Translations under genes and position numbers: made by a program
NCBI GenBank assembly: GCA_051362555.1
Contig: CM120642.1
Span: forward strand, 28,954,001 to 29,018,000
Origin: Lingula anatina
Taxonomy: Eukaryota; Animalia; Brachiopoda
Direction: 5' to 3'
Length of the DNA: 64,000 nt
The notes under the pieces: generated by a model
Told to the model about the DNA's origin: nothing
The model's input: the letters and a program-made list of their open reading frames with translations, nothing else
Database searches by the model: none
In this document: in pieces, positions 22,232-53,597 of the stretch
How positions within the stretch are numbered: the stretch's first letter is position 1
How the letters are laid out: every line of letters starts with the position of its first letter

Positions 22232-22237
22232 ACTATC

Positions 22238-23347: not shown

Positions 23348-24687
23348 TTATCCCTTGTAGCCTGGGGCTCCGTAACCCAGGTAACCGTTCCCATAGTTAC
23401 CAGCCTTGATCCCGACGCCATAGTGTCCTCCTAGGTAGTAAGTTCGTGCATACGGCTCATACCCTCCGCCATATCCTAGGTCATGACCATAGCCATATTC
23501 GCCTTTGAGACCAGCTCCGTAGGGGCCGTACATACCGCCGTGTCCGCCCTTATATCCGGCGCCGTACGCTGAATGCGGGTACGGAGAGTACTTGTATTGC
23601 ATTGGCTGTTTGGTCTCGTAATGGCCGCCACCGTGCGCCCAGTAAGGGGGTGGGGCTCCGTAAAAGGGTTTTTGATAGGGCATGGGGGGAGAGGAGTGGA
23701 AATATTTCTTTGGTGGTAGAGGGGGAGGGGGGTAATAAGGTTGAGGTATGGGGATGATGGGAGCCGGCGTGACATTGTTATTATTATTATTGTTGTTGAC
23801 AGTTGGGAAATGTTTACCGTAGTCGATGAAATAACGAAATCTGCGATAACTGTGTTTTTTTGCTTCGTTGTCTTTGTATTCCGGGTCTAAGGGTTCCTTG
23901 TCTTTGTAACCGTACTTGAAGTAATCTGGATAGGAGTAGTCTATAGACTTAGATAGGCCGTACAGCGGGGGTGGGGCTACTGGAGGGCCGTAGTCAGGGT
24001 AGGAGTAGTCTGGTAAAGGACCTGCCGGCAAATGATAGGCAGTGGTCAGCGACATAATGGACAATGCGGACATCACCGCTGCCACAACCTTACTGGACAG
24101 TCCTGTAATTACATAAAGGTGAACATTTATTAATGCAGCTGACATGTTCACGTATCCAAGCAGACACAGGCACGCGCGCGAACGCACACACACACACACA
24201 CGCACACGCACACACACACACGCACGCACGCACGCACGAGGTCAAGTGAAAGCGACAGACAGGAATACTGTTTTCACTACCTGTATACATGCACTTAATT
24301 CATAATTTAATTAGAACTAAATTTTATGAAATCATAACATATCCACTAAAATTTTAGTCCTATAGCAGCCGAATCTTTAATAAGATTAATTGATAAGAAT
24401 ATCCTAGGAACCATCAAACTAACTTGTTTAATGGATGCTAGATTGAACCAATTATTTCACCGATCTGAAAATGCATTAATATGAGCCAAAAGAATGATAT
24501 GCTTCTAATTTGACATACTCTATTATGGGCCACAATGAAAGACAATGAAAAAGACATCAAAATCAATAAAGATTAAATAGAAGAAAATCAACATTTTGGT
24601 TCTTTGAATACGTAGAAAAAGAAATGTTAAAATTCAACGTTTTAAGAACGCTGGATAATTACCAAGGGTTCCCATGCCGGCGACCAT
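23348..24687 (-). CDS. Cluster gene 3: secreted 259-aa Tyr/Pro/Gly-rich protein ending GYKG* (exons 24687-24663 and 24102-23348)
   Basis: Exon 1 MVAGMGTL-G|gtaatt joins ttacag|GA-LSSKVVAAVMSALSIMSLTTA in phase 1, giving a signal peptide; YSYPDY repeats, poly-Asn, poly-Pro and a GYG-rich tail follow. Confidence 0.85.
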
Positions 24688-26806
24688 ACCAATCCGCTCA
24701 AAACTGTCCAGCACCAGGCGTTGTGTTCCTTAGTCCTCTTCAAGTCAACAATATGAACGCTTATCCTATCTTATTTGGGCAGGCAGTATAAAACTTTATC
24801 GGCATTTCATTAATTTGAATTTAATACAGGGAAATGTCAAAGCCTTTTTTAGCGAATACTTTTTTCTTTAGATGCTGGTGTCACGGTTAACGCCTCGTAA
24901 TTGCTAATTGATATGTAATCTTTTATCATTCTTTGACCTCTCACCTTAAAGGTCATTGTGGTGTCGTACTTTTTGTCCAGAAATTCACATATTTCGAAAT
25001 ATTTTGACGATGATGATGCCCCTGTTTCTTAACGTTCACACAGTTTTACTCATAGATATTGGATACATGTACATGCGTAGTATCGATAACAGGACGAATT
25101 TGAATGCATTTTTTTTTCTCAAAGCAAACATTTCGATACATCGAGATAAAAAGTTTTTAGGAAAAAATGCAGTCAGTTATTTTTTATTAATCTTTGTTAA
25201 AAGTACACTATACGCGTTTGAAACATTTGAAATTAAATAATTAAGTAGAAATGATATAAAACATTGAATTTAAGGGCAGGGAAGGATCAAGTTTTAATTT
25301 GTGGTAGAAGAATTTCTTAAAGGTGAAAATCGATTTGGCGCGAATATCTCTGATGAGATAACTTTGAGTTGAATATTACCGTGTGTATCTTTGTCCTGCT
25401 CAGACTGCTCAGAGTTGAAAAAAAGAAGAATTTGCGAGGAAAAAATAAAGCGTATGGTATAAAAAAACAGTTGATGAGAAAGTATATCTGAAATATAGAA
25501 ATTAAAGGATAAAAGAGCCATTCCAAAGTTAAAAACTGCTTTTTATCATAATGCGCCAAATCAGAATGAAATTAACACCGCGTAACAAAGGTTTTGATCT
25601 TTTTAACATGCAACAAGTTGTAGATTTTTTAAATCAGGACGCACAGCTCATTTTCGTGAAGCGTTTCAGTTGAAAGCAGTTTGTGGTTTTCTCAGCACGT
25701 TTGGTTCGTGCCGTGGTTTGACACAGGGTGGATTAGGTTGAACTACATATGATAACGAAGGCAGCTGGGTACTTGATTTATCTAGATACCTCGCTTGTCA
25801 AATTAATAAAAAAGTTAAAGTAAAACTGAAGTATGTCTTACTTTCTAAATAGTTAAGGCAGGCGTTCAAGAGGAAGATAATGTAACGATTTTATGAGACG
25901 AAATTATAGGGCGCCAACTCTGGAGTTAAGATTTTACGTGGACGTTAGCTAATGACACGGCTTAGTTATCAAAAATTGAAAGTGAATAATGATTATATTT
26001 ATCAATATGACTAACTTTGCACAGACCACGTTAAGGAAATTCTGAAAATGTAAACTGCACTGCATTATTAACTGACAGAAAAGGGGTTTGCACGTCGCTT
26101 TGTTTTCGGTAAAAGATGAAATATCGGGTGCTCACTAGGTGGTGGCGAGAGAAAAAAATTCAAGTAATAATGACACGAGCATAAATGTCGTCGACAAGGC
26201 ATATTTATTCACTGGCCTTAAAATAAGTTTGAAACATTTACAGTAATATTGACTAAGCGTAATGACTTTATCTCTACATTCGTGTACGCTGATGGCTGTA
26301 GATCTCCTCGTCATAGCTTCCAGTGTATTCTACAGCAGGTTAAATGTCTTTGTAAGATGGTTTTGTAGCAGCAATATGCTTTACTATATTCTACAGCATG
26401 TTCAACATTGAGGACTATTTCAAGGGTAGGGCATTATTGGTTAATGAGTTTGAAAAACAGTTAAACATTAAAGCGAAAGAGTTATAAAAAACGGCGATTT
26501 CACATCCTCAAAGTAGGCTCGTCAACAATGCCATAGGAATGTTAGTATCTCTTTGTAGGTGAAGATGCAGTCCTCTGTTATTCTTGTTCTACGTTCTGGG
26601 CGTGAAACAAATCCGTGATCTGCAAACAAAATGAAGTAAGTTGCATGAACGAGGAATTATATGATGCTCCAAGGAAATATATATATTTTTTTCGTAAAGA
26701 ACAGCGGCCGTGGTAAATAACTGTTTCAAATGTTACATAGGCTTACCACAATGAAACAAAGCAATGCTGATGGCGAAATAAATACTGACCTTTTGTAAGG
26801 ATCCGC

Positions 26807-27169
26807 CTACAGATAGAGAGCAGAGAAGTTAGGGTATCCGTAATTGTACGGCCCGTACCCAGGAATACCATATGCCGGGTATCCCACTCCAGGATAGGCT
26901 GTCCCGGGGTACACGTATCCCGTCACTGGGTATCCTGTCCCGGGGTATCCTGTCCCGGGATATCCCGTCCAGGGGTATCCCGTCCCGGGGTATCCTGTCC
27001 CAGGATATCCCGTCACTGGGAAACCATATTGTGAGTATATCGGCGGCTGCAAGCCATATGGGTCCCCGGGGTATGGCACGCCAGGCCCAGGGAGATGCAA
27101 GCAGAGTGCGAGATCTAGGCACGACAGAACTAATAGAACGGAGACATAAACCCTCAGCAAGTAAAGCAT
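26807..27169 (-). CDS. Cluster gene 4: secreted 120-aa protein with (YPGTG)n repeats
   Basis: Signal peptide MLYLLRVYVSVLLVLSCLDLALC; 15-bp coding repeats; TATAAAT at 27237-27231; gtcagt donor at 26789. Confidence 0.85.
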   Translation of the reverse strand: MLYLLRVYVSVLLVLSCLDLALCLHLPGPGVPYPGDPYGLQPPIYSQYGFPVTGYPGTGYPGTGYPWTGYPGTGYPGTGYPVTGYVYPGTAYPGVGYPAYGIPGYGPYNYGYPNFSALYL

Positions 27170-28020
27170 TTTGATTCGACAATTGCAACGGTACCTTAAG
27201 TACCACAAAGATTGAACGGGGTTCAGTTTAATTTATAGACTATTTTGGTGAAGGAGAGCCAGGGGCACCATGCAATTTATATATATATAGATATCGAGAA
27301 GGAAGTGAGTCACGCTTGATATCACATTTATAATATTATGCTTTCTAGTACACTAAGGCTCTGTTCTCACAACTTTTAGATCGATCTATCACCGCGGGGA
27401 GTCTCACTAGATTACTGTCAGATAATCCCCCTTAAGTGTCCGTCCCCGCCTACTACAAGCTTTAAGGGGTAATTAACTTTCGTGTCCGCCCGGCTGACAG
27501 CTATTTAGCGTGAACCCCCAGGGAGTTAGGTCGATCCAATGTAGGTCGATCTAATCTATGAGAATGGGGTGTAAGGCGTTGCTCCACTCACATCAGGCAG
27601 TTTTTAAGGCTAATTATAAGAAGCTGACACAAGGTCGCTGGACTAAAAGCGTTTGCTATGCTCATGTTAGTTATTATCAGATAAAATATAGTACAACACG
27701 ATATCGTTCACCGCATTTATTTCATTGTTTTAGAAAAACCTATATTTGTCTAGCATGATGTGTTAATAAAATTACAATCGATGAAGTCATGAATCATGAG
27801 AAAACGGCCGAACTATATTTAATATGTCAATGAAGATAATTTTTTGTTGAAAAGGACAAATTTATGCTCGCCACCTTCACCTTTGTCATATACTGATAAT
27901 AATAGTTCATGGCAGAATTCAAAATAGCTGTAATAAAGGTTCTCTTCAAACTATTGACAAGTTGGGAGATGAATGGACGGTTGATTATACGAGGCATGAC
28001 CAAACTCTTCCCTGGTAAAA

Positions 28021-28118
28021 ATGGCAAGATCTCATGGAGTAGGGGTCCTGGTGGCAGCCCTTGTGGTGCTACTGATGCTCCCTGGGGAAGACAGAATATG
28101 GAGGCACATATGGGTAGG

Positions 28119-28161
<43 letters not shown>

Positions 28162-28256
28162 GACGGTAGTCTGCGTATACTCCCGCTTTCATGGTTACAC
28201 CCAAGCCAGATCTGGACCCTATTTCTGTGGCAATGTACAGCATATGTACAGCAAAG

Positions 28257-28287
<31 letters not shown>

Positions 28288-28379
28288 ACCGGCCGCCGAT
28301 TTACAACAAGCCGCAATTTTACAGCCAACCGCCAGTGCTACATGTACCTACGAACCCGCCGATACCATATAAAGGGTAG
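28021..28379 (+). pseudogene. Cluster gene 5: frameshifted or mis-assembled secreted-protein gene ending IPYKG*
   Basis: Signal peptide MARSHGVGVLVAALVVLLMLP and family tail NRPPIYNKPQFYSQPPVLHVPTNPPIPYKG* lie in different frames, separated by (TA)n at 28121-28158 and poly(G) at 28256-28285; gtaagt donor at 28405. Confidence 0.6.
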
Positions 28380-29769
28380 ATAATTTATTGTGCACAATAA
28401 ATCTGTAAGTTGCGTTCAGAAAGTTCACGATGCTGAATTTAATTTAGCTATTTGCGTTTTTCTATAAGATGAATGCCTATTTTAAATGTCAACTGATAAA
28501 ACTACGAATTAGATAAAAAATTAATAAATCAGAGAAGAGAAGACTGTTTGAATAAATGAATGAAGCTTGAACACAATCTTAAATAATGATTTTCTCAGAC
28601 CTAAATCTTTATTTTCAAAATAGAAGGGCATTTGCTTTTGTATGAAGGCAAGATTTCCGATATTTGCGATAGATGCCTCCAACACAATGTTTTTTGACCG
28701 TGTTGTGCTTATTTTGTTGCAATATTTTGCATCGATGATTTATTACTGGTCGACGTTTCTCGAAAAAGAAGTACTAACCATTTAGATTTTTTATATTATT
28801 TGAATGATATAGAACAGTATATGCTTATTGTATTATTGCTTCACTTAAACACCACAAAAACTAAATTTGGACAGTCGAAAAAGATTTTTAGCAGAAATGT
28901 TTTAATAATGTCGAACATCAGGAGCATCACATTGAATCGGTTTTATCATTTCCCAGTTTTGATAAAAACATCGTTTGTTCTCTGCAACAATTAAATTGAC
29001 ATATACACGGAGTTCACTCAGCACAACGTTTGTGCATAGTATCCAGCCACTTGGTTTTTTACATATTTTAATGGGAAAAAAACCTAAATGAATATTTGAT
29101 GAATTGGAATAAAATTACAACATTTGTAGAAAAAATATTTACAATGTCGGGGATGATTAGGGCGGACATCTACGTAAACATATAGGTGGCTAAAAATTCA
29201 ATACATTGTGCGGACTAATGATCCTTTATTGAACGAGATGAACAAATAGTTGTGGTACATCTTATTTTTTGCCACTTGGTAGATTTCTTTTGTCCGTTAA
29301 GGACAATGTTTTTGTAATACAATCTATTTGATTATTGTTCCAAATTGTAACCCCGACCGCTTGTCCATAAATGATACGCAAGTCAATAATGCCAATGTTT
29401 TTTCGTGTAATGTGTCTTTCTCATCATGGCCGAAATTTGTACAGTGTATTGCTTTTGCGAAGCCGAAAATTCTAGCCTTTGAAATAGAACTTTAGAGAAG
29501 TCATCCGTAGAAGTCATCTGTAGTATAGTCGTTCTGGTCAAAGCCGCTGGTTTCTAGGTACCTAAAAGTATTAAAAAAAGATGTAAGTGCGTGAAACATC
29601 ACAAATAAAAAGTGCATTCTTAATTTGGGAAATGGCTATATTCTTAATGACTGATCTTAGTCTTAGTCGTATTGAAAGGTATTGGTATATTTGCATGCCA
29701 ACATAATCTGGCTATCGCTTCTCCTCCCTATAATTTAAACAGCAGTCAATAATTACCTTGGGACAAATT

Positions 29770-29988
29770 TTACCCAGAACTCCGAAGGTTTCGAAGGTAG
29801 ATGAAGAGCCTTACGAGAGAGCGTGGGTCGGTCCGTGCCTTGTTGTACAAGAAAATTCGAAGTAGATATCTCTGAAGCGGTGGGTCGTAGGTGTAGCCCA
29901 AGTAACCTTCTGATGACACAGGCGTTGTGACACAAAGCAGAAGCCATGCCATGGCCAACAGAGCGCACCACTTCTGAACGGCTGCCAT
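29770..29988 (-). CDS. Cluster gene 6: secreted 72-aa basic Leu/Arg/Tyr-rich peptide
   Basis: Signal peptide MAAVQKWCALLAMAWLLLCVTTPVSS; TATATAT at 30044-30038; donor caag|gtaatt at 29756 and a ttttag acceptor near 29562. Confidence 0.75.
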   Translation of the reverse strand: MAAVQKWCALLAMAWLLLCVTTPVSSEGYLGYTYDPPLQRYLLRIFLYNKARTDPRSLVRLFIYLRNLRSSG

Positions 29989-31599
29989 TACGACGCTGAG
30001 GCTTTTGAAACGGTGCAAATTTTGTGCAACGTTGTGAATATATAGGGCGGTAAGTTAATTCTATATCAACGATGAGAACAAAATCATGGTATTTTTCGAA
30101 GCTTATCAGTGCCACTTGGATGCCTCACGCAATATTAAATTTTGTGATGTCCAATTAAATCATACACAATGTCTAGACGGCAGTATTTTGGCACAGGAGG
30201 GTAATTTTGAAACTCTAAAGACAGGGGTCTGTTTTACATACAGGGGTCATGGTAACTTGGGAAAGTGCCATTATTATTTCGCAAGACGATAAACGTGCCC
30301 GTGAAGTTCAAAGTTGAGGGCGTTTTTGTTTTTTTTTTTTCCACTTCTACACCTTACAGATAATGGTTGTCAAGAACAAATTCTCACGTCAAGTGTAGTT
30401 GAAAAATAAAAGCAATTTATAGATTAGTAAAGATGCTGACACCGGAACTTGTGATCGAGTGACGTAATCACACCGTTTTATCGAAAAGGTTATACCTTAA
30501 CTAGCTCAGGAATGATTTTGAGAATGGACCTTTAAGTCCTGCCTATGCCATCTCTTATTACTTATTGCAGGACGGTCCATCAGTGAGACGGTAAAAAATG
30601 CACCTTTTATGATATCCCTTCCATTTTCTTCTTTCTTTCTTTCTTTCTTTTTTTTTTTTGTACGTATTTTCCAATTCTTTCAAATTTCCTTTATAAATGG
30701 TACCATGCATACCATGCTAAATTAACAAAGCGTCGAGACTGAAAGTACTAATGCATTGCTTTTACCTGCTATAATGTTTTCAAGTCAGCATTATTCTGAT
30801 TGTACTGCTCAGTTTTAGTTTATGAACTGCATAACAAAGACTAAAATTTGACTGAGAGAAAAAAATCTTTATTGAAAGACAGTCCAATGTAAAACGTGAC
30901 ATTTCAGCTGCACGCCAGTCCACAATAAACAACACAGCAGAAACCTTGAAGAGTCCATGTGCAATGTTTGCGTTTCTCCAAGCTTAGTTAGTTCATCTGA
31001 GACTGTACTGCACATTGGCAAGAGTTTTAACTTCCGTAGTCTATAGGAAATCCACTGTTTACAAATAAACAGGTTTTCTTGACTCAGTCTAGACGATATT
31101 GTTATGTTGTAGATGGCTCAACCGTTTCTCTGCGCATCGCCGTCTGGAACGAAAAACGTCGGTAAGATTATTCACCACAGACTGTGACGGCAAGTTGGCC
31201 AAGAAGATGCAGTGATAAATGATTACAATGAAAACTACAATTATAATAAAGGCAATAAAATAGTATAAGATTGGATTAACTGCTTTGTTATGTTGTCTCT
31301 TTTCGGATTTAAAACAGAAAAATTGTACTAAAATTGTAAACAATATTCATAATGAAGATTTTTGTCAGCAGCCGTTACGACCAATAAGGAAAATCAATTA
31401 CAATTAAAGGTCTCATTGTAGCACTACCCAGTACATCAGAGGTTCCTCGTAATAAGATATAATAAAAAATATTAATTGTCACATTACACTTAAGGAAACA
31501 CTCATATACCGTTTTCTATCGTAACAGATCACTGCCCAAACTCGTATGTAATAAATTTAATGATATCCAACACACTCACGTACCAGCCGTGGCTCGAGC

Positions 31600-31830
31600 T
31601 TAACCCTTGTAAGGGAATGGGTGTGGATAGTAAGGCCTCTTGTAGTAGGGTCTGTAAATTGGTCTGTAAATTGGCCTGTAGATTGGTCTGAAGTAATTCC
31701 CATGGTAGATACGACCACGTCCATTGTAGTTGTCATAATAGTAGCCCCTAATTCCCAGCTCCCCGGACACAGAGCACAGGAGCAGGGTGGTCAAGGCGAG
31801 GACAGCGAGCAGCTTCTGGAAACTAGCCAT
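31600..31830 (-). CDS. Cluster gene 7: secreted 76-aa Arg/Pro/Tyr-rich peptide, (RPIY)n, ending FPYKG*
   Basis: Signal peptide MASFQKLLAVLALTTLLLCSVSG; TATAAAAA at 31884-31877; gtgagt donor at 31579. Confidence 0.88.
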   Translation of the reverse strand: MASFQKLLAVLALTTLLLCSVSGELGIRGYYYDNYNGRGRIYHGNYFRPIYRPIYRPIYRPYYKRPYYPHPFPYKG

Positions 31831-32382
31831 CGTGGTGGAGATCTCTTAGATGGAGGTGTCAGGATTCTCTCTCCCGTTTTTATAGACTTGGCCAGCACCG
31901 CTAATCACGATGGTCCGCCGTCCTCACGGCAACAGTCTGGCGCAGAAAAAACATTTGTCATTTTTTGATGGGATGTAAGCGATATTTAATGGTAGGTTGT
32001 GTTTTAGATCGTTTCAGAAGTGCTTCATTACTTGTGTCACGAAAAGAATAATGATTATTCCAGAGAACTGGTATTGTGAGTGGATGTTCTGAGAATCACC
32101 ATTATTGAAGAGAGAGAGATTAAGAATTAAGTAATGGTATCATCTGAGAAATAGCAAAATAACCCTGTTGTGAATGGGACAAATGTGTCCATTTACTAGA
32201 AAACCATTACAAATGATCAGATTCAAAAACATTATAATTAAAGATAATAAGTGCTGTCCAATGGGGATCATCTGCTTTTGCTTTAATCGAGGCCATCTGT
32301 ACTACATGATGTCATACGTGACAGGGGCGTAAGGGGAGGACAGCTTCTGAACGACAGAGGTTGAAACTCAGACAGGTAAATG

Positions 32383-32542
32383 CCAGTGTGACAGGAATGA
32401 AAGTCCGCTAGAAACCATAGTCCGCTTCCTATCACTTAGTACAGGTGACATTCGTCCTATATACTAACCTCAATTCTCCAACTAACCCTAAACTGTACTA
32501 ATCATAAGGCAGCCGCCCAGACTTCCATTCCTGTAACACCGG
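32383..32542. mobile_element. Putative MITE (160 bp) with 23-bp terminal inverted repeats
   Basis: Left end ccagtgtgacaggaatgaaagtc versus right-end reverse complement ccggtgttacaggaatggaagtc (20/23 match); internal ctaaccctaa motif; no clear TSD. Confidence 0.6.
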
Positions 32543-35500
32543 GAATGTCTTTAAAAAACAATACAAGAGTCTGCCAGTATACTGTATGTACAAGGTGACG
32601 TCCAAAACATGGTGAAATCGTACTATTTTGCAGTCAATAGTAATTCAACAGAAACTACGAAAACACAAACAAAATGCGGAAACATTCGTTGTGCTTTGTA
32701 GTCTTATGAGATTCATTTTTTCCATCCAAAAGAAAACGAAGTAAAAGATGTTTAACTACCTGTATGTGCAGAAATTTTCAACTGCTCTTTGCTAACATAA
32801 TTTTTTTGTGTTTTCATGTCCACAGAAATAAATACAAAATCCTTTACAGTGTCCAGTGATAAAAAACATGCTGTCAGTTTTGATAAAATGATTCGTCTAG
32901 AGATTTTTAAATATTGAAATAGGTCAAAGGTGAGACTAATGAGACTTCGGGAATGTGGGTGGCCTTTAAACAACTGGGGCTCGAATGTAAAGAGAAAACT
33001 TCCCAAAAATTAAAGACATGGATAAATCGTCGCTTTCATCGTTGGGGCACCCGAACCACGGCACGTCTCATAATAATTACAAAGCCCCAGACATAAAAAG
33101 CTGACAATTCAATGTCAGAGGTCGTCATCAAGAAAAGTGTTAAGAGGTGTTTGATTATTGGTCATATTTCCACTTACTGTCATGTACAATGAATGGAACG
33201 TTTATATTTAGAATAATGATGACAATGTGACTCGAACCTCTCAGTCCTGTTGTGTGTATCTGATGGAGTAAATGTTACCTAATTGAAAAGTATCAGTTAA
33301 TGAATCACCCCATGGGTGTCACTAACACGCTCGGTAGGGAGGTTATCGGAACGGCCATCTGGCAACTAAGAAGTCAAGTAACCGCAGGTGCTGTGATAAC
33401 ACGTAATGTGTGGATGTGGCTGTCTCTCACGGTGCTGGGGACAAAAAGGTTGTTTCAGTTTACGTGTGCAGAAATAGTATCCGGGGGAAAAAAACTGATG
33501 TAGACTGTCTTCATTTCGTCAGTGAGATGAGAGATTTGGAACTTAAACTGGGTAACAATAAATTGATTCATGTAAAATGGTGCATTCAACTGTCTAAGTT
33601 GATATCTCATCTGAGTAATTATAGCGTAGGGCAGTTTTTGGCGTATTTCTCTAACCGCCGAGTGAGACGAGTGTTGAATATTTCGAGCCTGATCAGAAAG
33701 GCGCTCCACTATCTACGGCGTTGATTTTTGAGCATAACATTTTCTCTGGGTGTCACAGTACAGAAATGTGCAAGAATATCTAAAGAAACATTAATCTCAT
33801 TTCTGTGACCTTGTAGGGGGCAGGAGGGCCCACTTTCGGTCAAAACGTGCTGCCTACATGTACAAGGTCATGCATTCCCAAAATTTTAATATCGCATGTC
33901 CTATATACTTAACCCACAAAATATATATTGATGATTAGATTTATAGGTATAATAGATTTATAAGTATACTTAGCTTTGCTTTATTTCATGTGTGTGACAT
34001 CTTATTTTCATATTTTGCGATGTTATGATTTTTCCGATATGTAGTTTATATTCATATATTCATAAAGTAACAAAAACATTCAAACCAGCTGTTTTTATTC
34101 TTTTTATATATATTTATATATTTAATTCTACATAATTATTAAAATTGCTGGCGTTTACGCAGCCTTAAAGGGTACTTCGTTTTTTCGTACATATGATTTT
34201 TCAGAAATCTTTTTTACTATATTATGCGGTCCAAGCCAAGGCATTTCCCCTTTCTGTCTTTTCTGTCTCTTTTAGGGCCCTTGGTGCTTACAGGTATTAC
34301 TGAATAAAAATAACTTTGAAAATAAATAAATAATGAAAAAGGACAATTCTAACTAAATAAGTACATTTAAAGGGATATATTTTATAAATGTCAGTTCATA
34401 ATTTGAACAAATTTTATTTCTTTTCACAGGTAAAGAAGAAGAAGTAATTCTATAACATATATACATATTTAATGTTTTTTTCTTATGGGCATGCTTCTTT
34501 TGTCCTTTTTGCACATTTTCAATTTTTCTTTTTAAGTTTCATTTCCAACCGATTCTCTCAACCCGGTTATCCTGTCACTAATTTCCCCTTGACATTCTTG
34601 TTCTGTAGGTTTGTTATCTTAATCTTCCTCATTAATATCTTTTGAAAAATAAAGGTATTATACCGATAGCAAGATATGTCTGTGTGTGAGTGTGTGTGTG
34701 TGCGTGTGTGTGTGTGTGCGTGTGAGTGTGTGTGTGTGCGTGCTTATGTTTGCGATCTTTATACCTAAATGCACCGTTTACGCTGGTAGATCAAACGAAC
34801 AAACAAGTGTAAGACTGAGCCGTTGCATGGGATCGAACATGCATCTTCCCATACTAACCTTTTTGACTTGCAAGCTAACCACTATTACACACAAGAGACG
34901 ATCTGATCAAATTTGGTTTTTCCATCATATTTATAGCTCACTATGCAATGAATTGTATACTTGTAACATTTCAACATGTTATTGCATAATGCTAGGACTT
35001 CAAAATAGACGGCGTAGATTACTGTCATAGGTTGAGCAGGATTAAAAGTCTGGGAATGATGCAAGTCCTACCTATTATATCAGTAAAAATTATAATAGTG
35101 AGCCAGGAGCTAAGGTCCTACTAGAACTACTGTTCCTAGGTAATAAAGTATGGTCCGTAGGACTTGGTTAACTGTTCCGCCATTTCTACTGACATTTGCT
35201 CCTTTAATTAAATATCAAAGCCAACGGTAATTACATAAAATGTTTTAATTATTATTATATTTTGACAGAAATATTGTCGGTAGAAATGTAAAGCAGCTAC
35301 TTGAAACAAAATACTGAGCATTTCCCACATTTCTTCCCACATTAATCAGTATTATACATCTTAGCATTTGTACCAGCGAACCATTTAGATTTATCCTTGA
35401 TTACTATGGCTAAACCACAGACGATATCATATTTTTGATCACACGAGCATTTGTCCCTGCGTTTATAGTTGACTCAGATCGATATGTGCTTAGTGACAAC

Positions 35501-36826
35501 CAAAGTGTGTTAGTTGAGCTTCTTTATTGCAGTTGCTGTCCAGCATTTCTTCAGTCTCACGCAATGACCTCTGTCGCAATCAGGAGTCTCCTTATACAGG
35601 TGATAATTATTATATTATCGACATCAGTGTCGATACGTCATAGACAACATTGAAATAACCAATTATAACAGATTTGACAAGATACGTTATAATAAGCACG
35701 AGGCCTATCTTATATAATCTATAAAGAGATCTTTATAATAACGTATCTATTAATTTTAAAACAGAAACAGAAACAGAAATACTTTTATAGCTTTTTTTAA
35801 AAGCTTTAAACTTCAGATGAATGATCTTATATCAGGACAAAACCAAACACCTTTGTCAGAATTAACCTCATTATAAGAATAAGATTAAAAAAAACATAAT
35901 ACGAAATAAAATATTCCGACCTTGTACAGCAAAGGAATGAAAAAAAAAACAAAAACATGAGCACGACCAGAAAACAAAAGAATACATATCACATAAACGT
36001 TTATTGTTACCCAGTCCAAAAACTGCAAACAAAATGTGTTTATAATCTTGTCGAATGAAGCAAATGGCTCTTACTGCACTATACATATGTAGCATTTGAG
36101 AAATAGGCGCTAATGACCATAGCATCTGAATAATCGTTGTGAAGCAGAACGCGCAACTCGAAAATCAAACCACATGTATTCGTCAAAATAATAATAAATA
36201 TAATTATAGTTCAATGAACTGGTATATAAGACACTGAAAAAAATGAAAAGTGAGAGCAAAAAGCGAAAACAGATCACGGCATTTTAATGGAAGTCTTATT
36301 TTCATGACAACAACAATTTTTGGTGTGCCTCCATGCAAGCAGCATTATTTATCTATATGTATAATTGATACCCGGTAAGTGTATACATGTACTAATGAAA
36401 CGGGCCCTCTCTCGGTATTCAGTTCAAATATGAACTAGCGTCCGGGTAGGTTTTACTGGTTCTACTGGTGGAGCTTTTATAGAGAGTGGATGATGCATCA
36501 CAGATTAGTTAAAGCTTGAACGCGTCTTTGGTCCCTTGTGGTCAAACTGCAATGAAAACATTGTCTTTGTTACAATAGTACACATTGTGCTCTGAAAATT
36601 GAAGTTGATTCACATAGTCTTACTTAGTTTAAAGGTGACACAATATGGAGAGGATAGGTAATAAAGTTATTTTAAACAAAACAAACAGAAACGACCGTAA
36701 GGATTGATGTTCAGTATTATTATATCAGTCATAAAGGAATGACAAAAAATAAACGACAGTGACCAATAGTCAAATAAATGTGGAATTTAAAAAAATGTCT
36801 TCAGTAATGTCTACAGTACCTTAGAT

Positions 36827-39756: not shown

Positions 39757-39861
<105 letters not shown>

Positions 39862-42877: not shown

Positions 42878-43517
42878 TTTTCCGATTAACTCCGATTTGT
42901 TGTCGTCGCTTCTCTCTCGACTCTTGCCAGGACTAAGGTGTCAGATTCTCAGCACCTTGTTCTCTTTATATCCGCCACCAAGATCTGCCACCCTTCAAGA
43001 AGGAAATAAATCTAATGGCCCCGCCCAAAATCACTCAATCGTTTTAGTGATATTATGTATCTTGTCTCTATATCAGGAGAGAATCGTTAAAAAAGCGTAG
43101 TTACGGATAAGTGAAGTTAACAATTACCTCTTATCAAAGGTACAACGATGTCGTGTTTCTGTATCTCGAGTTTTTACTGTAACATTAAGTCACAGGTTTC
43201 CTTGAGGTCAAACTTTATCACTTTCAGAAGTCATCCATTGGCACGCCTCGTGGTTGTAAACACACTATTGGTTAAATCAGCGTCTTTTACAGCGCAAGCT
43301 GTCTTAACGGCTGCAACGGGTACGATTATCCCAGCAACGAGAATACAAAGCCCAGAGCACATTTTACAGCCAGATGAAAGTGCTACAGACATGAACAATT
43401 CAGTCAGTTATGTCTGCTATTGGTTGAAATATCAGAAGAAAGATATATTTGAAGATGTGATTCCTTGAACATACACGGCATGGGAGGTGATGACGATGAT
43501 GATGTTGATGATGATGA

Positions 43518-43554
<37 letters not shown>

Positions 43555-45138
43555 CATACTTGAAAATAAGAAAATAGACGAATCTATGACAGAAGTATAC
43601 CTAATCTGATGGTATATATTTTTCAAATATTTTCCTTATAAATTTCTGGAATTTTAAACCCCAATTGGAATTGTTTCAACAAGTTATGCATCTCAGTTCA
43701 AAATTCAGAAAATTAGATTTAGATGCTACCCATGTATTTAATAGTTACTGCCTTAATAAACACAATCGTATGTCCTTTAGGTCTCAACTTTGAACTAAAC
43801 AATACATATTGGACAAGTAGTGTAGATTATTATTATTACCTTATATTGTAGTGTAGAATATTGTTCATCAGTAATTTTGGACGTATGTTTCTTAATTTCA
43901 TAGATACCGCGACCATTACTAAGTTGCCCTCGCCGTCTTCTATAATGAACATCTTTGACACCGATATTAGGCAGCCTTACATAGACAATTTTCTCTAAAA
44001 AAAACTTCAAATTTAAGAGCATGTGCATTTTTCGTTCAATGATACCCGAGGTAATTTCCATTTCAATCGACAAAGATAAGCTACATGTATATGAACACAG
44101 TTTTTCAAAAAATTCTGTTAAAGAAATTTTTTAATATCTTACAATTAGCTAATTCCGTGCACTGCATGATTTGTAGATTTCTACATAATTTGTAGATTCA
44201 AAAATTAAATATCCATTCTGAAAATTTCTTTCAAACTGTAGGACTTCAGAAATTCAAAATCATTAGTATTTCCAATTTAGATTCGAGTATTACTTGTCAT
44301 CTTACTTACTAATTTTCTTTTTTCCAATACGATTCATGCCATATAAGTTCCTAAATGACGGATAAATTTGGTTTTGTGTAAAACATTATCACTAGATTCC
44401 TGCAAGTGTAAAACAAGCTTGTGGTGAAACTTACATATAAACTAAAAACAAAAAGATGTTTTAACGTCAACAGCAGTTTATTGCATAGCCTTCTTTTAAT
44501 CAGAACACTACTTTACGGTGCCCTACGAAACCAATGCTAATTTTTTTGTAAAATTGTTAAGAGATACATTACCTAATTTATAATATGTAACTGTCGAAGA
44601 GGCAGAATACGTGATTCTAAAGATAAATAAATAGAGTCAACGACTTTTTTGAGAGTATTTCTTTTTTAATGACCAAAATGAAAAATACATTTTACACCAC
44701 AGTGAATGAGTTTTTGTTAAGTCATAATTCCAGATAGCGGTTATTTGAACAACTTGAACGACTTGCAAAATTTACGTAGCGGATGATAATTCCACTACCG
44801 AACCTACATTAAGAAACCTTTGGCATTAATGTAAATAAAACAAGTCATCTCAAACAAAAATTGGAAGATTTAAAACAGTAAGTCGCGTATATCTTTAACT
44901 GAAAACACGATGAAATACCGGCAACAGTGCTGAAGCACCGGTGCTGTGTATACAGGCAACAATTCACTGAGCACAATGTTTTCATCAATGTAGAACAAGG
45001 ACGCATAAAACAAATTAGATACTAAATGTGTAACTATAACATCATGTGACGTCAAAACCAACAAAAAAATCCATATTAGTAATATGTCTCTTTTCAGTGT
45101 CTTATTTCAGCTTCACAGTGATCAAACTGAACTTGTCC

Positions 45139-46149
45139 TTAGCCGCCGTTTTGTCCGGATGGGGGCGCTCCCAGGGTCGACAACAAATTCTGCATGCTGC
45201 TGGAAACCATTAGAGGAATACTGGACCCTAGATTCGTTCCCCCGGGCTGATTAAGACTCGGGTTGGTGAAGAATGATGACGCCGGTATGGCGCCATTCGC
45301 GGGTTGCACGTTAGCATTGCCAGCAGCGTTCCCCGGAACACCTAGGACATACACAGGGACTATTGCCTGTTGTCCAGGACCTGCAGCACCGTTGGAGGCC
45401 GAACCCAGGGAGCTCAGAACGGACAGTGGTGAAGTCGGGCTTGCTGGTGAACCCGCCGCAAGGCTAGGGTTGGTGTTGCCATAGCCTAGCAGCGACCCTT
45501 GGGGAACAGCGCTTCCTGCTCCAGTGCCAGAAGCCGCGTTCTCAATGAGGATCCCGGAACCATAGGGTTGGACTTGGTACGGCCCGCCATTTCTGAAGGG
45601 TGTGGCTGAGGGCGTTGTCCCAACGCCGTATGGACTTGGCGTATATCTGTTTCCAATACCGTATGGACTGGCCGGATATGCACCACCGTTGCTGTAATAC
45701 CTAGTTCCAGCGCTGTATGGATTTCCTTGGTATGTACCGTAGAGGCTACTGGCATAAGGGCTGGCTGGGTATGCTCCAGTGTTGCTGTAGCTACCGCCAG
45801 GGCTGCCTTGATAGCCTGAACCAGCAGCGTAGGGGCTTGGCGGGTACGTGCCGTGCCTACTGTACGGCATGTTGGCATAGGGCATACCGGACCCGGGGGA
45901 GGGCTCTGGTCCACCGTACTGTGCGCTGGTCATTTGACCGGGTCTGAGGTTCCTTGGGTACCGCAGGTAGTTGACAGAAGGCCCGGCCACCATCCCTGGG
46001 GCCCCTGGTGACCCAGCGGCATACGGACTAGGTGGGTACTGCGAGTAGAAGTAACGACCCTGGGGAGGCTCGGGTTCCCGGGGATCTAGGTGATTTCCAT
46101 GTGCTTCGCTGAGAGCCAATGTTACAATGAGAAAGGTGATTGAGATCAT
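45139..46149 (-). CDS. Cluster gene 10: secreted 336-aa Gly/Pro/Tyr/Ser-rich protein with YP(P/A)SPY repeats
   Basis: Signal peptide MISITFLIVTLALSEAHG (an in-frame ATG at 46197 is an alternative start); TATATATA at 46276-46269; single ORF. Confidence 0.87.
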   Translation of the reverse strand: MISITFLIVTLALSEAHGNHLDPREPEPPQGRYFYSQYPPSPYAAGSPGAPGMVAGPSVNYLRYPRNLRPGQMTSAQYGGPEPSPGSGMPYANMPYSRHGTYPPSPYAAGSGYQGSPGGSYSNTGAYPASPYASSLYGTYQGNPYSAGTRYYSNGGAYPASPYGIGNRYTPSPYGVGTTPSATPFRNGGPYQVQPYGSGILIENAASGTGAGSAVPQGSLLGYGNTNPSLAAGSPASPTSPLSVLSSLGSASNGAAGPGQQAIVPVYVLGVPGNAAGNANVQPANGAIPASSFFTNPSLNQPGGTNLGSSIPLMVSSSMQNLLSTLGAPPSGQNGG

Positions 46150-48290
46150 AATGTTCCTTGAAAATTTCTGTCGATCAGGATTGTCGAGAGCACACATAAA
46201 GTGAATTTTGGGGTTTCTCTGCCTTTGAGTGTTGAACGTTTGTAAACCTTGATCCCGTCGCACGGGTCTATATATAAAGCTGTGCCTACGTAAAAAGTTG
46301 CAATCATTTCCTTAATATAGTAAAAACCTGCACGCCCATCATTGCTTATCTCTGCTTTCTCACCAAAATGTGACCACATATTACCACGGTTGGAGTTAAT
46401 TACTTCGTTTGGCAGAGATGTGTGATTTCAATTACTCCAAGAGGGCATCAAATGTCATCGGCAATCTTACGCACTGTTGCCGTCCAAGGCAGCAGGTACC
46501 TGTAGACAGGGAACTGGGTTTCACAGTTTACAGCAGAGAAGCTAGACAAGGCTATGACAAGGAGGGGCGTCAAATATAATTGTTTATAAATTTGTCACTT
46601 TTTATGTCTGTGTGCGTGTGCGTGTATGTGCGCACGTGCGTCTGAAGCAGAATATAACTTTTTATACAGTCTCTTAAAGCGTACGCATTCATATAGATAT
46701 CAAATGCCAGAGTATATGATTATACATTGAATACGCGTGCGTGCTCACTCCAGGCTGATACTCTCCACCACTGACCAGCTAGGTGGTGACGTCATTTCTG
46801 ACATTCTGTGCAAAAATTCTGTCACAGTACACAAATGTACACAGATTTAGCCAGAAATTGTATGTGGGTATCTTGTGAGAGTCTTGTGGTCGGGTGGTTT
46901 AAAATGCTCCAAACTTCAAAGTCTTATCTCTCAAAATTTTCACTCATTACTTTCTACATACATTGTGTAGCTCCACAGTTTTGTTTTAAAGAATATGATC
47001 GCGATTGAACAATAATGTCCACGTGACATTCAATAAAAAAGAGGCGGACCATAACGTAATGCCGGGTGTGCGCGCTTCGTCCAGACTACAACAGCTTCCT
47101 TTCTAGTTATCGTAACTTTAAAGTTTGTAATGAACAACACCAAATTTTACTGGATGTCAGTGGAAAGAGGAATGTGCAATAAACTGGTGGTGGCGTCATC
47201 TTTTTTTCTTAGTTTTCATGTTAGTTTCACCTCAAACCTGTTGCACATTGATTGGAATCTCAAAAATTACTCTTCACATAAACCTAACAAACAATATGGC
47301 CTCCATTTAGATACCTTTATGGCATGAAGAATGTGCATTTTGTCCGAAAAAAAAGAGAATTAAGAAGATGGAACGTAAGCCTAATCCTCGAATCTTAGTT
47401 GGGAACACTAATGAAATTTGAATATCTGAAGTCCTACACTTTGAAATAAGCTTTCAGATGAGGCGTGGCTTTAAGGTCCTCCATCAAAGGGCTTTGATCA
47501 TGTAAGTGCCTCCAAGATGTGAGCCCCGGATATTGAATTTTTTTTTTCACAGTATTACTTGTATGCTGGGTTGTTAATCATACACTGAAAGATACCTGGT
47601 TTGGGGGACCACGGCCAAATTATATTGTAGAACAAAAGATAGAAAGTTAAAAAAGCTATGCCCAGTGTATTATCTGTATGCAGTATTTAATTTACTAGCA
47701 ATTACTGGTACCCGTACCTACCACGGTAAAAACTGTTACTTCCATATTTGTATAAATCTAATACACTTACTCTGAAACTAAGACGATGCGTATAAAGATA
47801 AAGGTGACATTTATTTAACATATAACAAGCATATGCCAGTACATGTACATGATTCTTTTATGTTGTATATACATAGAATACATGTTCTTTCTTTTTCTAC
47901 TGCAGTAAATGGTTGGACAGTCAAAATGATCTCCTGAATGTCTATCTGAGCTACGCCACTCTATAAAGGGCACTCGGATTTACGTGAATGTTCACATTTG
48001 CTGGTGACTGAATTGTCTTTGAATAGCCGCAGTGATTGATGGATTTCACCAAAAAGCCGCGAGTTGTGGGCTTAGAAGACATGGAGGTTTTACTGTATGT
48101 GTTGTTTAAAACCCTCATCCCCGTGGTCAGTTTCTCCCCTTGGTGTCTTATACACAGAAAATGCCGACAGCGTCACATCAAGTATGTTCTCCTAGTGTTC
48201 ATCCCCGGCTGTCCCTGACACAGCTTTGTACGACTGGCAAATTTGAGGTACGTGGTTTTCCCAAAGAATTAACAATAAATATATGGATGT

Positions 48291-48728
48291 TTATTGGAGA
48301 TTGCTGTATGCATCCTGGAACCACACTTTTCCACTCTTCTTCTTTCCCTTTAAGGAGCCCCTCGGCAGGAGGCCATTCACTGGTCCATTATTGTGTTTTT
48401 GGTCGTGATAGGAGAAATAGATATCAGGTGTCAGTTCTTTATGCTTAATGGCGTGCCTCCCACCCGATTTTTTCTGGGAAACGTTATAAGCAACGAGACT
48501 CTTGTAACCTCGACCGACGCTTGTGTTGGAATTAGAGGTAGACTTCCCTCCTCGCCGGCCGTAAACGATGTCCCTCGTGCGTTGAAACAGATTGAAATTG
48601 TACTGTGGTCCTGATAGAAATATACTGTAAGGATCCCGTAAGATGTTGGAAAACGGCGCACTTACGGTCCTCTCAGTCCAAACAAACAGAAGTCCCAGAA
48701 AAAGAACATATTTTGGGAGAAGAACCAT
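48291..48728 (-). CDS. Cluster gene 11: secreted 145-aa basic (Lys/Arg/Gly/Ser) protein
   Basis: Signal peptide MVLLPKYVLFLGLLFVWTERTVSA; GC-richer coding island; same strand as neighbours; no obvious repeats. Confidence 0.7.
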   Translation of the reverse strand: MVLLPKYVLFLGLLFVWTERTVSAPFSNILRDPYSIFLSGPQYNFNLFQRTRDIVYGRRGGKSTSNSNTSVGRGYKSLVAYNVSQKKSGGRHAIKHKELTPDIYFSYHDQKHNNGPVNGLLPRGSLKGKKKSGKVWFQDAYSNLQ

Positions 48729-50487
48729 CGTCCAACACAGCTCTGCTTTCTTGCAGCACTACACGTGTTTACTGTGACCTTCCCCGTCTCAAACGCGCCT
48801 GTTTGTTTCCATGACAAAGGACAATTGTGAAACCAATGAGGAAATAAACCGGCCAAACAACACTTTACACGAGCGAACACTTCCTTGCGATCCGAGCCCC
48901 CTGATAACAACGTATACACATATATGACCACGCATGCTAAATACAGTTCGCGTGACAAAAAGGGCAAGATTAAATCCTGACTAAGTGCCGGTCAAATTAT
49001 AAGGCAGTTATAATGTATAAGGCAATACGCCTTCATCGTGCTTAGAAGGAAATAACTGTATATGGGCCCATAGAGCGTGACACTTTTTACACCTTACTCC
49101 GGTCAATATTCTTATTACAACTACCAGAGATATTCATGTAGCCACAATAAGTATGTGTAACGCATGAGAATCGTGCCTGATATCCCGGCAGTTTCATGAC
49201 AGTATGGGGAAATCACGACAGGTCTTAAATCATGAATGGATTCATAAATGGCAAAAATAACATCTTATTAACGTTATCTTTTTAATTAGACCGTTGGTCC
49301 ATCTTTAAAGATACTGTTAATGGGTTACTGTTGTTGGAATTATATTCATTACCCCTCTAGCAAGTGTGCATTTGTTAAACAGGATGGCAGTTAACAATAT
49401 TTATTTGAAAACCTAAATAAGTTGTGTTGATATAGACTAATAAATAACATAAGCAAATAAAGTGAAAATTACAGAGGAAATTTATAAATGGGAAGATAGT
49501 TTGACAAACAAGTGTACTTATAACACAAATTAGAATTATATTTAAGATAAGTTAGCATTCGTACATGTAAACAGGGTGAAATATACACGAAGACATGGGG
49601 GTACTGGTACATGTACTAGGGGGATGAACCCCCACGAACAAGGTATGTTGAGTAGATTGATAATTCTAGTATTTTGTCTCATTTAAACACAGTGCACTTA
49701 AAATGATATGTGCACCGAGTAACTACGCACATTGGCTTTCTACGTCCCAAATGCGCCCATAAAATATAGCAAACGTCCAGGACTTACTTCTATTCCGAAT
49801 TGGTGAGCCTTTCAAAGTTCACTAACATCGGGGCATAAGTAACTTAGCTCACATATATATACGGTGTGAAATATAAATGGCCCTGCAGGTGAACGCCACT
49901 TATTAAATACACAAGGAAATAAAAGGGAATACGTTAAAACAAATTCGGCGGTAAATTAAATTCTGTTGGCTGTATTAAAAGATGCATATTAGGCTAGTGT
50001 TTATATCGAGTTATTGTCGCTAAAAGCCACCATTAATTTTCAAATAGTTTTGCTTAAAACAGCAGTTTCTTTACATTATTGCCTGGAATACTGTATATGA
50101 TTTTTGCTGTATATGATTTTTGCATTTTGTCTTACTTTCTGTGCTTTACGGACTGGAAGGGAAATCAGTAGGTCAGATTTGAAAAGGGGCTAATTTAATT
50201 TCTTTCTTTTTTTTATTGCCCGAGAGATAAATTTCGAGGTTCTTTTGGCAGGGTTTATTTTTGTGTAACAAAAAAGCAACTCGATGAGTACATTATAATA
50301 ATAAGTAGATAAATGAATCAATAGATTAATTAAGAAAAAACATGTACAGTGTATTAGGAGACCTATTAATCAGAGGTGCGTTTTAGGGTGACTTTAAAAG
50401 AACGCTGCCAAAATAAATAATTGTAGAGTAGCGATAAAGTCAATTCGATATATCAAATGTCGAATAAGTTTGATTCTGACACATGCA

Positions 50488-50685
50488 TTATTTTATCATC
50501 TAAAAACATGAAATTATATAGAATTTGATTTGATTTGATTCTTACGCATGCTATTAGCCCTGCATATGACAATTTTGAAATCTTCCTGTTTTGCTATTAA
50601 AAACACATGGGCATGAAGATTTATGAATAAAAAGTTCAAACAGTGAAAATAATTCCATAAGCTTTCTTCTGTAAATGCAGTCTTG

Positions 50686-50723
<38 letters not shown>

Positions 50724-51005
50724 AAAAAAAAAAATACTCCAAACATTTCATGCCAAGCAGACTATTGTATATTATCTTATCACCTAAAACCATGAAATTA
50801 TATGAAAATTGATTCTGACGCGTGCTGTTAGCCTTGCATATGGCAGTTTTGATACAAAATTCCTTTTTCGCTATTAAAAACTCATGGGCATGAGGATTTT
50901 TGAATAAAAAGGTCAAACAATGAAATACATTCTTTCTTTTATAAATGCAATCTTGTTCCCACGCGCATCCTCCAAAGAAAATATCCCTAACATTTCATGC
51001 CAAGC
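50488..51005. repeat. Diverged tandem duplication, ~250-280-bp unit
   Basis: catgaaattatat...gctattaaaaac.catgggcatga...aacatttcatgccaagc present at ~50490-50758 and ~50770-51005. Confidence 0.85.
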
Positions 51006-53258
51006 GTTTCGCAGTCTATTTTCTAATGACCTTCATCTAGACTCTCGCAGCTTTTTACCAACCAATACTGCGCCTTAAATAAGTCCACGTGCCATACCAT
51101 TTAGGGCACTTTGGGGCTAATTTAACAATGTGAATCTGAATAAATGGAGACGAATAACAGGCTTCACACCCATGGATTTGTAATTTAACTGATCACCATA
51201 GCTTCTATAGATGGAAAAAGGCTAGTGTTCGGTGTGTCACGAACAATATGAGACGAATTTTAAAAGGGACTATATTTCCAAATTTTGTCAAGTTGTTTTA
51301 AAAACAGAGTTCGAGATATGTCTCATAAAGGAAATGGACAGTTGGTCGTATGAGGGAAACCTTTTTCTGAGTGTTAACATGAGAAACTCCGATTGCGGGG
51401 CGCTTAATTCCGGCATTGCGTTCTTGAAATGTGATTTTTGAATTACATTGAATTATATTATAATTATATATATATATATATATATTATAGAGACATTCTG
51501 AACTATCACGTCAACTCATTTCTGTGACACAGATTATGTTGATATATTAGATCTTTTATAACCAAATATTCTGGCGGCTTTGTTTCTTCTCTTTCTCTCT
51601 TTTTTTTCTTTTTTTCGCGCGATCACTTATTGAAACTACCCTCTACCAGGGTGGCAGATATTATAGACAAATTTCAAAAAGCAGAGAATCAAATGACTGT
51701 CTATCTATCTAAAGACATATCTGTGAATATCTTGTGAAAAATCAGTCTGTCGGTAGAGGGTACACTGAAACCCTGTTTTTATAATTCACCAACCAAATAC
51801 GCCATAGAGTGTCTACAATTATGATTAACCAAACAAAACACGAAATTTATAAATACAACATAAAATAGATTTATTCATTTGTTGTTCACCGATGGTGTTA
51901 TTTTGTTTTGCACATTAAAGCTGTAAGTGCTGATTATTTTGGATATGTTGGACAAACTTCTGCCAGTTATACATCGAGAATGGAGGTGTCATCACTTTGA
52001 TAGTCATCGGGAAGTGCTCCAGTCCTTTTCAATTTTAAATATTTGGCTTATTAAATGATTTTGAAAATAAATAATCAACTTAATGTCTTTGACAACAATG
52101 CGTCTATATACACAATGTGTTCTGATTTCCGATGGAATGTCGAAAAAGCGTCACGCCGTCGTCGTTTCCGGTGGTCTCAGCCCTCTTCTCTTCCCTTCTT
52201 TCTTCTCTCCATCTCTCCTTCTCTCCTTTCTTCTGAGCACGTCGACCCCAGCACGAAAACGGTGATCCCAAAGAATAACCCCTGAAATACAATGAAAAAT
52301 TAATGTCATTATAGGCAATTAATAACTCTCGAATTTCATAAGAGGGGGGTTGACTGTACATGACCTTGTCCACTTGTCAAGTTATAAGGAAACATGAAAC
52401 TTGCATACACTACTGAGGGTCATTAGCATATCGGAGGGTCTTCGACGTGCACTACGTACCATGCAATGCATTGATATAAATTCCATCTCTATATCTTTTA
52501 GACATATAATTTAAAAGTCCCTAATGTATGTGGATTTATCTCGTCACTGGACGATGACCAAGTCGTTTAATTTGCAGAATGAGGAAGTCGACTTGATGCA
52601 CGAGAATCAACTTATGAATATTAATAATTTGACCTTGGGTTAGGCCGAGAGATAAAATATATAATTGATGCAGTACTTTATATTTACGGTACTTAATACA
52701 TTATCCATGGGTTACAATATACATAAGAAAAAATAATGAATTTTCCACTGCATTCAACCGGGTAATGAGTATTTAGAAAAAAAACAGTTCAAATATGATC
52801 TACTTTAGATAAATGTTCAACCACAATATGCAATTAATTTTCTCTTTTCGAATAGATAGATATAATAAACTATGCTGCTACTCTTTTTTATGACAACAGT
52901 ATGAGGCTGGTTCCTTGTGTTCTGAATATTTAGAAAAAGAGAAAAAGTTGACTTTGCAGATGACCTATTAATATCTGCAGTTACTTTGACTCCGATTGGA
53001 CTTTTATATAGCGACGTAATCTCGAGTCACAATTAGCTGCCATTTTCTTGCAAAAGCCAAATATGTGAGATTCATAGGATTTGACAAAAAACAAAATGAA
53101 TAAAAACGAGTGAAAAAGAACGAAGAATATATATAAGTATGAGTCGTTTGTCAAAATGTACAAGAAATAAATGAATGAGGTCAAAACACAATAACTTCAA
53201 ATGTAAATGAAACAAAATACACATAATTTATGATATCTAAAATTATTTTCATCTCACC

Positions 53259-53597
53259 TTAATGATATCCTTTGTAGTAGTTTCTTGGTTTCTTGCTGTT
53301 ATAGCCAAGAGTAGCACCGTAATATTTGGCGGTTGGAGCTTGGTAACTTTGGTAGCCAGTGCCATAGCTGGGGCCGTAGCCATAGCTGGGACCGTAACCA
53401 GCGCCGTACATGTTGCCGCCGAACCCGAGGCCATATGGCATGTTGTAGCCAGAATAAGGCCCGTAGTTGCCGTAGCCGCCGTAACCGCCGTAGCCGCCGT
53501 AGCCGTATGGGCTGCCGTAACCGTATGGTCCAAAAGCTGTCACCACGGTCAGTGAAACCAGTGCGACCAGAAGGATGGACTTCACGTTTGCTGCCAT
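53259..53597 (-). CDS. Cluster gene 12: secreted 112-aa Gly/Tyr-rich (GGY)n protein ending KKPRNYYKGYH*
   Basis: Signal peptide MAANVKSILLVALVSLTVVTA; TATAAAA at 53697-53691; donor TAA-G|gtgaga at 53257; shematrin/prisilkin-like composition. Confidence 0.9.
   Translation of the reverse strand: MAANVKSILLVALVSLTVVTAFGPYGYGSPYGYGGYGGYGGYGNYGPYSGYNMPYGLGFGGNMYGAGYGPSYGYGPSYGTGYQSYQAPTAKYYGATLGYNSKKPRNYYKGYH

Follow-up and report, generated by a model that had tools for sequence, protein, structure and literature searches.

Shematrins and KRMPs carry RKKKY-type tails behind Gly/Tyr domains that are described as cross-linking; shematrin-like genes are also reported as a cluster in Hydractinia. 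Serrulin, one of the Gly-rich defence peptides of arachnids, has a KG terminus and is amidated on Lys; so are the acanthoscurrins, whose precursors reportedly end in Tyr-Lys-Gly. In the SCPP family, P/Q-rich members have an untranslated last exon and the coding introns are all phase 0. Here we analyse a cluster of 14 gene models for predicted secreted proteins, most of them rich in tyrosine, in 64,000 nucleotides (nt) of DNA from the brachiopod Lingula anatina (contig CM120642.1, positions 28,954,001 to 29,018,000; hereafter the window), a species whose genome paper reports that no SCPP was found (PMC4595640). The cluster is real and apparently undescribed. Some of its proteins end in Tyr-Lys-Gly (YKG), a motif that is real and, judged from sequence, probably selected, but confined to a minority of the cluster. 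An intron just behind the stop codon, overlooked in a first-pass annotation of the letters, is a broader and better family mark than YKG.

Exact YKG-stop closes 3 of the 14 gene models, namely g3 (23348..24675, − strand; a Y/G/P-rich model of 255 residues ending APGYKG), g5 (28021..28379, +; ending PIPYKG) and g7 (31600..31830, −; 76 residues, basic, with RPIY repeats, ending PFPYKG), whereas 0.009 are expected from shuffled mature regions. The probability that any terminal tripeptide is common to at least three of 14 proteins was 7.4 × 10⁻⁴ in 200,000 whole-protein shuffles and 5 × 10⁻⁴ when the last 30 residues were shuffled; terminal YKG is thus commoner than chance. Among 7,102 stops in the six frames, YKG-stop occurs at three sites, every one a gene end. 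All the C-termini that the annotation had quoted (g1, g3, g5–g10, g12 and g13) are present in the sequence, but not all of them speak for a tag. The additional Gly termini of g6, g10 and g13 (3/11 versus 1.93 expected, P = 0.30) and Tyr termini of g1 and g8 (2/11 versus 1.56 expected, P = 0.48) are at chance level, and these five genes were therefore rejected as tag support. With that support at chance and nine of the 14 genes lacking YKG or YHG, the motif does not define the family, contrary to the proposal of the annotation; a selected C-terminal tag holds for a subset and fails for the cluster as a whole.

The YKG tails read TAC AAG GGA TAA in g3 (23348..23359, −), TAT AAA GGG TAG in g5 (28368..28379, +) and TAC AAG GGT TAA in g7 (31600..31611, −). 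Every third position thus varies (TAC/TAT, AAG/AAA, GGA/GGG/GGT), as does the stop (TAA/TAG), which marks YKG as a protein-level feature and speaks against repeated DNA or recent copying. Because the codons differ between tails, an origin of the motif in a DNA or RNA element was also rejected. Of 91 tail pairs, only g9 (41774..42877, −; 367 residues, P/G/A/S-rich) and g12 (53259..53597, −; 112 residues, GGY-rich) align significantly, over 12 residues (z = 9.1) on unlike bodies. The former ends in SKKPRNFYHGYD (terminus NFYHGYD) and the latter in SKKPRNYYKGYH (terminus NYYKGYH), which gives the basic-Tyr consensus SKKPRN[YF]Y[KH]GY[HD]. By sequence there are therefore two tail types: YKG-stop, and a basic-Tyr tail of 12 residues with YKG or YHG inside it.

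RNA reads were mapped from six of nine listed raw-read runs (6–30% of each), covering g3–g14. Over g7, four of the changes listed between reads and window fall in the last 13 codons, at codons 68, 71, 73 and the stop (TAA to TAG). All four are synonymous, and no replacement is listed there, compared with three replacements at codons 55, 62 and 64, within 55–64. This pattern fits constraint on the tail. The YKG codons themselves show no change among those listed, which is by itself uninformative. On g7 and g10, several percent of positions in the reads of runs X7 and X8 depart from the window; nearly all of these differences are fixed within a run, as would be expected of a diverged population that bears the same species name.

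A strong splice donor lies 1–17 nt past the stop in 7 of the 14 genes (g1, g4, g6, g7, g9, g12 and g13), against a background of 2.7% of 7,095 stop triplets (P = 3 × 10⁻⁸, with a frequency-based donor matrix). Weaker post-stop donors are found in g8 and g14. Two of the three exact YKG genes, g3 and g5, have only weak donor candidates, at +40 and +25 nt. RNA reads of run X7 confirm post-stop introns in three genes, each in the 3′ untranslated region (3′ UTR). In g6 (29770..29988, −; 72 residues, ending SSG) the intron begins 13 nt past the stop (joint 29558/29757, three reads); in g7 it occupies 31144–31583 and begins 16 nt past the stop (joint 31143/31584, five reads from two starts); and in g9 it occupies 41341–41772 and begins 1 nt past the stop (joint 41340/41773, six reads). 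The signal peptides of g6 and g7 are homologous (z = 8.2) on unlike mature regions, and both proteins end in Gly; by their signal peptides they are clear paralogues. The description of the cluster proteins as otherwise unrelated is thus only partly right: it does not hold for the g6/g7 signal peptides, the g9/g12 tails or the post-stop donor common to 7 of the 14, which offers a route to family members invisible to alignment. At g8 (36815–36829, −), an in-frame TAA two codons past the stop is followed by G|GT, an arrangement also seen where g9 and g12 stop, and at g10 (45130–45141, −) TAAG|GA stands at the equivalent place with reads continuing through, as if a donor had been lost.

We favour, tentatively and with slightly less than even confidence, an explanation in which these predicted secreted, lineage-specific low-complexity proteins form an organic layer hardened by tanning, either the periostracum or the cuticle of chaetae or pedicle, and YKG is a cross-linking tail, amidated in g3, g5 and g7. 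Besides the YKG excess, the codon divergence under a constant peptide and the reading of several cluster genes in run X7, three lines of evidence point to it. The long repeat proteins of the cluster look structural (g2, 1,617 residues; g8, 272; g9, 367); the YKG of g12 lies away from the end, so that amidation alone does not account for the tail; and the Lingula shell or mantle data include PHM (one peptide) and peroxidasin in the shell proteome table and a tyrosinase highly expressed in larva and mantle (PMC4595640). A free C-terminal Gly behind a predicted signal peptide occurs in g3, g5 and g7, and also in g6, g10 and g13, but not in g9 and g12, which have two residues past the Gly; direct amidation of the tag is possible only in g3, g5 and g7.

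Under this explanation, most of the genes would have arisen by tandem duplication, after which the mature region would have turned over rapidly. The proteins would be secreted through the regulated pathway, where PHM/PAL would take off the Gly, leaving Tyr-Lys-amide in g3, g5 and g7. Tyrosinase or peroxidase would oxidise Tyr and couple it to Lys or Tyr of neighbouring chains, with the tail as a terminal Tyr/Lys site for oxidative coupling, as in the RKKKY-type tails of shematrins and KRMPs. The tail thereby makes a sharp prediction for mass spectrometry, Tyr-Lys-amide, and may be what the shell-proteome PHM acts on. Little is known about the tanned, Gly/Tyr-rich part of brachiopod skeletal and cuticular structures, and the cluster proteins are ready candidates that database-driven proteomics may have missed.

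Several observations weigh against this explanation. The YKG excess leans on a weak gene, since g5 has a frame break and no reads: no clean frame connects the signal peptide with the final coding stretch, the two being separated by (TA)19 and G30 runs and the apparent break, and no reads were found in four of four runs (28112–28295 skipped as repeat). The gene may be a pseudogene or an assembly error, with a possibly damaged frame. Without g5, the probability of any terminal tripeptide common to two proteins is 0.068, and that of any tripeptide in the last five residues common to three is 0.016. Among g3, g5 and g7, tail similarity stops at the last three to four residues (z ≤ 2.0; g5/g7 2.0), so that common descent of YKG is unproven, and the synonymous test in g7 comprises four changes, among those listed, in about ten reads. 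Tyr and Lys are common inside g3 (five YK, one internal YKG), and a terminal pair is therefore not required for tanning. Read depth is low (bin means of about 1–11, from runs whose tissue is not given), unlike that of a structural gene in its own tissue. The PHM of the shell proteome rests on a single peptide, and the 14 novel shell proteins reported for Lingula include no match to the cluster in length, isoelectric point and Ala/Gly content, compared by eye without sequences; the nearest by length, isoelectric point and composition is 14146, to g1 (PMC4595640). The shells used for that proteome were bleached with NaClO (PMC4595640). Apart from its frame, g5 is also inverted in orientation relative to its neighbours.

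As the main alternative, the cluster may serve host defence: YKG would then do no more than donate the amide, leaving a cationic Lys-amide at the end of antimicrobial peptides (AMPs) rich in Gly/Tyr or Pro/Arg, a reading that we consider unlikely but credible. It fits g7 best and then g12, g6 and g13: the mature region of g7 has a net charge of +8, and its RPIY repeats include the C-terminal hexapeptide of crayfish astacidin 2, although it contains 15% Pro, under the 25% cut-off for proline-rich AMPs, and there is no myticalin-type anionic propeptide. Precedents exist in serrulin (ending KIKG), the acanthoscurrins and the ctenidins, described as Gly-rich and C-terminally amidated, the first two on Lys; in the myticalins, which are Pro/Arg/Tyr-rich with predicted amidation; and in the Gly/Tyr-rich NLP/CNC peptides of nematodes, which are reported in clusters. 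Low, sample-dependent expression is also consistent with defence. By contrast, g2, g3, g8, g9 and g10 encode repeat proteins of 255–1,617 residues, net charge is only −1 to +2 in g4, g8, g13 and g14, and g9 and g12 are not directly amidatable. The tanned-layer and defence explanations may each hold for different genes. We give a rather small probability to a Lingula radiation resembling that of the SCPPs, in which unalignable matrix proteins would be united by the post-stop intron and amidation would be a maturation step of shell or cuticle proteins. If true, it would account for PHM in the shell proteome and would be a structural use of a modification that normally marks hormones and defence peptides.

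The remaining readings concern the tail itself. That YKG has no specific role, being either left over from an ancestral tail or a chance product of genes rich in Tyr and Gly, would agree with the nine genes that lack it, with the loss of significance at the exact terminus once g5 is dropped, and with a PYK behind the g4 stop that is possibly decayed; we nevertheless regard it as improbable, as the excess is significant with g5 included, the tails diverge synonymously with the stop position held through TAA/TAG in the diverged reads, and 12 residues are conserved between g9 and g12. It appears quite improbable that the tail steers unlike cargoes to one granule or binds a chitin, glycosaminoglycan or apatite scaffold. 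Although the same short basic-aromatic end sits on non-aligning bodies and several of the genes are read in one run, no receptor, scaffold or binding result supports such a role, a binding site of three residues would be short, and most of the co-expressed genes lack the tail. Finally, a signal peptide and a terminal Gly could mark neuropeptide-like precursors releasing YK-amide peptides, and amidated brachiopod neuropeptides are known (PMC8557429); however, none of g3, g5, g7, g9 and g12 contains G[KR][KR], and they thus have no repeated Gly-dibasic cassettes, and neither ‘YKa’ nor ‘Kamide’ appears in the main text of that brachiopod survey, making this reading highly improbable.

The 14 gene models span 10055..63208 of the window, with g1, g2 and g5 on the + strand and the remaining eleven on the − strand, and the cluster may extend beyond the window. 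Near its left end the window carries the final coding exons of CEP135 (1518–4200, +); one of these, 70 residues long, matches Lingula anatina CEP135 at 100% identity and a pearl oyster protein at 67%. Downstream of these exons lies a tandem array of units of about 62 nt (6444–7200). All 14 cluster proteins begin with a hydrophobic stretch (maximum 9-residue Kyte–Doolittle value 2.5–3.6), taken as a predicted signal peptide, and none of the 13 scanned against Pfam reaches a curated cut-off. Behind its signal peptide, g1 (10055..10483, +; 142 residues) has a Glu-rich acidic middle and ends YNY, with the donor 15 nt past the stop. The single-exon g2 (15262..20115, +) encodes a basic protein in which a 22-residue (66-nt) QYG repeat occurs more than 30 times, followed by a Lys/Arg-rich region; the gene has neither tag nor post-stop donor. 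The g3 model joins a 13-nt first exon that is predicted only (24663–24675, −) to 23348–24102. In g4 (26807..27169, −; 120 residues, PGTGY repeats, ending LYL, donor after the stop), in-frame ADPYK runs past the stop up to the donor (26789–26830, −), and the stop sits in an acceptor-like context (CTAAC, pyrimidines, TAG); ADPYK may represent a PYK tail that has decayed, or a micro-exon missed by the model.

Three coding exons make up g8 (36827..38656, −; 272 residues, QQQYGNPYGA repeats, ending TRY), with a weaker donor 7 nt past the stop and its two coding joints covered by seven and eight X7 reads. The reads continue through the stop of g10 (45139..46149, −; 336 residues, ending NGG), which has no post-stop donor; a read gap in its 3′ UTR (44753–44855) has GT..AG ends, but the reads carry 21 other letters between its flanks; it may be an intron or an allelic replacement. 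The basic, untagged g11 (48291..48728, −; 145 residues) has trace reads, as does g12, mostly in run X2, with its donor 1 nt past the stop. The G/Y-rich g13 (57576..58682, −; a 144-residue model of three coding exons) ends YFYG, with a donor 4 nt past the stop. The Y/G/P-rich g14 (62321..63208, −) has two donors 4 nt apart (62321–62734, −), giving alternative C-termini TPTT or PYYLK, with no reads there. Read depth was low in X7 for g3, g6, g7, g8, g9, g10 and g13; g10 was deepest in X8, with bin means up to about 11, and g13 was also low in X8 and X9. No reads fell on g3–g9 in X4, or on g4 (over 26335–27001), g5 or g14 in four of four runs each. The bulk of the mapped reads belong to dispersed repeats rather than to the cluster genes. 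Most RNA reads with loose ends are drawn by short dispersed repeats (27374–27575, 59148–59496, 51640–51740, 32390–32510 and 40350–40400), the copy at 59148–59496 having inverted ends like those of a miniature inverted-repeat transposable element (MITE).

Searches with g12, the g9 tail and g7 yielded no homologue. One of ten proteins looked up exactly in a collection of 15 billion sequences was present, namely g9; g2 had no exact match, none of seven alternative starts or frames was present, and the look-ups covered forms other than the spliced g3, g5, g8, g13 and g14. A homologue search with g12 gave ten matches at E 1.9–9.3, all generic GYG-rich proteins without the tail. The last 40 residues of g9 retrieved only g9 itself among proteins of 201–643 residues, a 12-residue tail being near the detection limit. 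For g7, the ESM Atlas offered a lead in unnamed arthropod clusters (best 0.78), and the Protein Data Bank nothing under E 0.27. Neither the g1–g14 cluster nor a brachiopod YKG tail was found in the literature by titles and abstract starts, a scope in which subscription journals are largely missing. Within the accessible LICP and bivalve shell-proteome literature, the only precedent for an amidated matrix protein is one cited title on an amidated osteocalcin peptide. The comparison below draws on published sources (PMC6784228, PMC3896809, PMC11876637, PMC13080008, PMC5854119, PMC13367325, PMC7736402, PMC8557429, PMC5577615, PMC2453101 and bioRxiv 10.64898/2026.03.09.710468).

We rejected membership in the shematrin, KRMP, myticalin and SCPP families. 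Like shematrins and KRMPs, the cluster proteins combine a signal peptide, a Gly/Tyr-rich low-complexity body and a short conserved basic-Tyr C-terminal signature. Counts of XGnX glycine repeats flanked by Tyr or hydrophobic residues, made in seven proteins, were eight each in g3 and g12 and one to four in g4, g7, g8, g13 and g14. Shematrin and KRMP signatures are of RKKKY, RKYKY or RRKY type and end in Tyr, unlike both Lingula tail types; the RKKKY-type pattern is found in none of the seven proteins, the termini of the other cluster proteins differ from it too, the translations hold no KRMP-type Lys/Trp-rich domain directly after the signal peptide, the Lingula bodies vary widely in size and composition, and no sequence homology was found. 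The shematrin-like/prisilkin-like cluster of Hydractinia is similar in being a tandem set of poorly alignable secreted Gly-repeat genes, but it is cnidarian, and its accessible description mentions no common tail or post-stop intron. The arachnid Gly-rich defence peptides are poly-Gly haemocyte peptides of 3.5–10 kDa, whereas the Lingula tail carriers are Tyr/Pro-rich and reach 255 residues. Cationic and Pro/Arg/Tyr-rich with its RPIY repeats, g7 recalls both myticalins and proline-rich AMPs such as astacidin 2; it agrees with the latter in positive charge but not in the Pro content of at least 25%, and differs from myticalin, which has a dibasic site, an anionic C-terminal propeptide and an intron before the ATG, in ending YKG with an intron after the stop. 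Vertebrate SCPP clusters offer an analogy only: they too comprise fast-evolving secreted disordered proteins related through exon–intron structure, in an apatite-forming animal. Coding introns in the Lingula cluster are mostly phase 1 (g8, 0 and 1, RNA-confirmed; g13, 1 and 1, and g3, 1, in the models), unlike those of SCPPs, and the neighbour on the left is CEP135, with no SPARCL1 link seen within the window; no SPARC-type Pfam match occurs among the 13 proteins, the right flank lying beyond the window. By analogy, the Lingula tail may act like the known basic-Tyr tails or amidation donors, yet it stands outside all named families.

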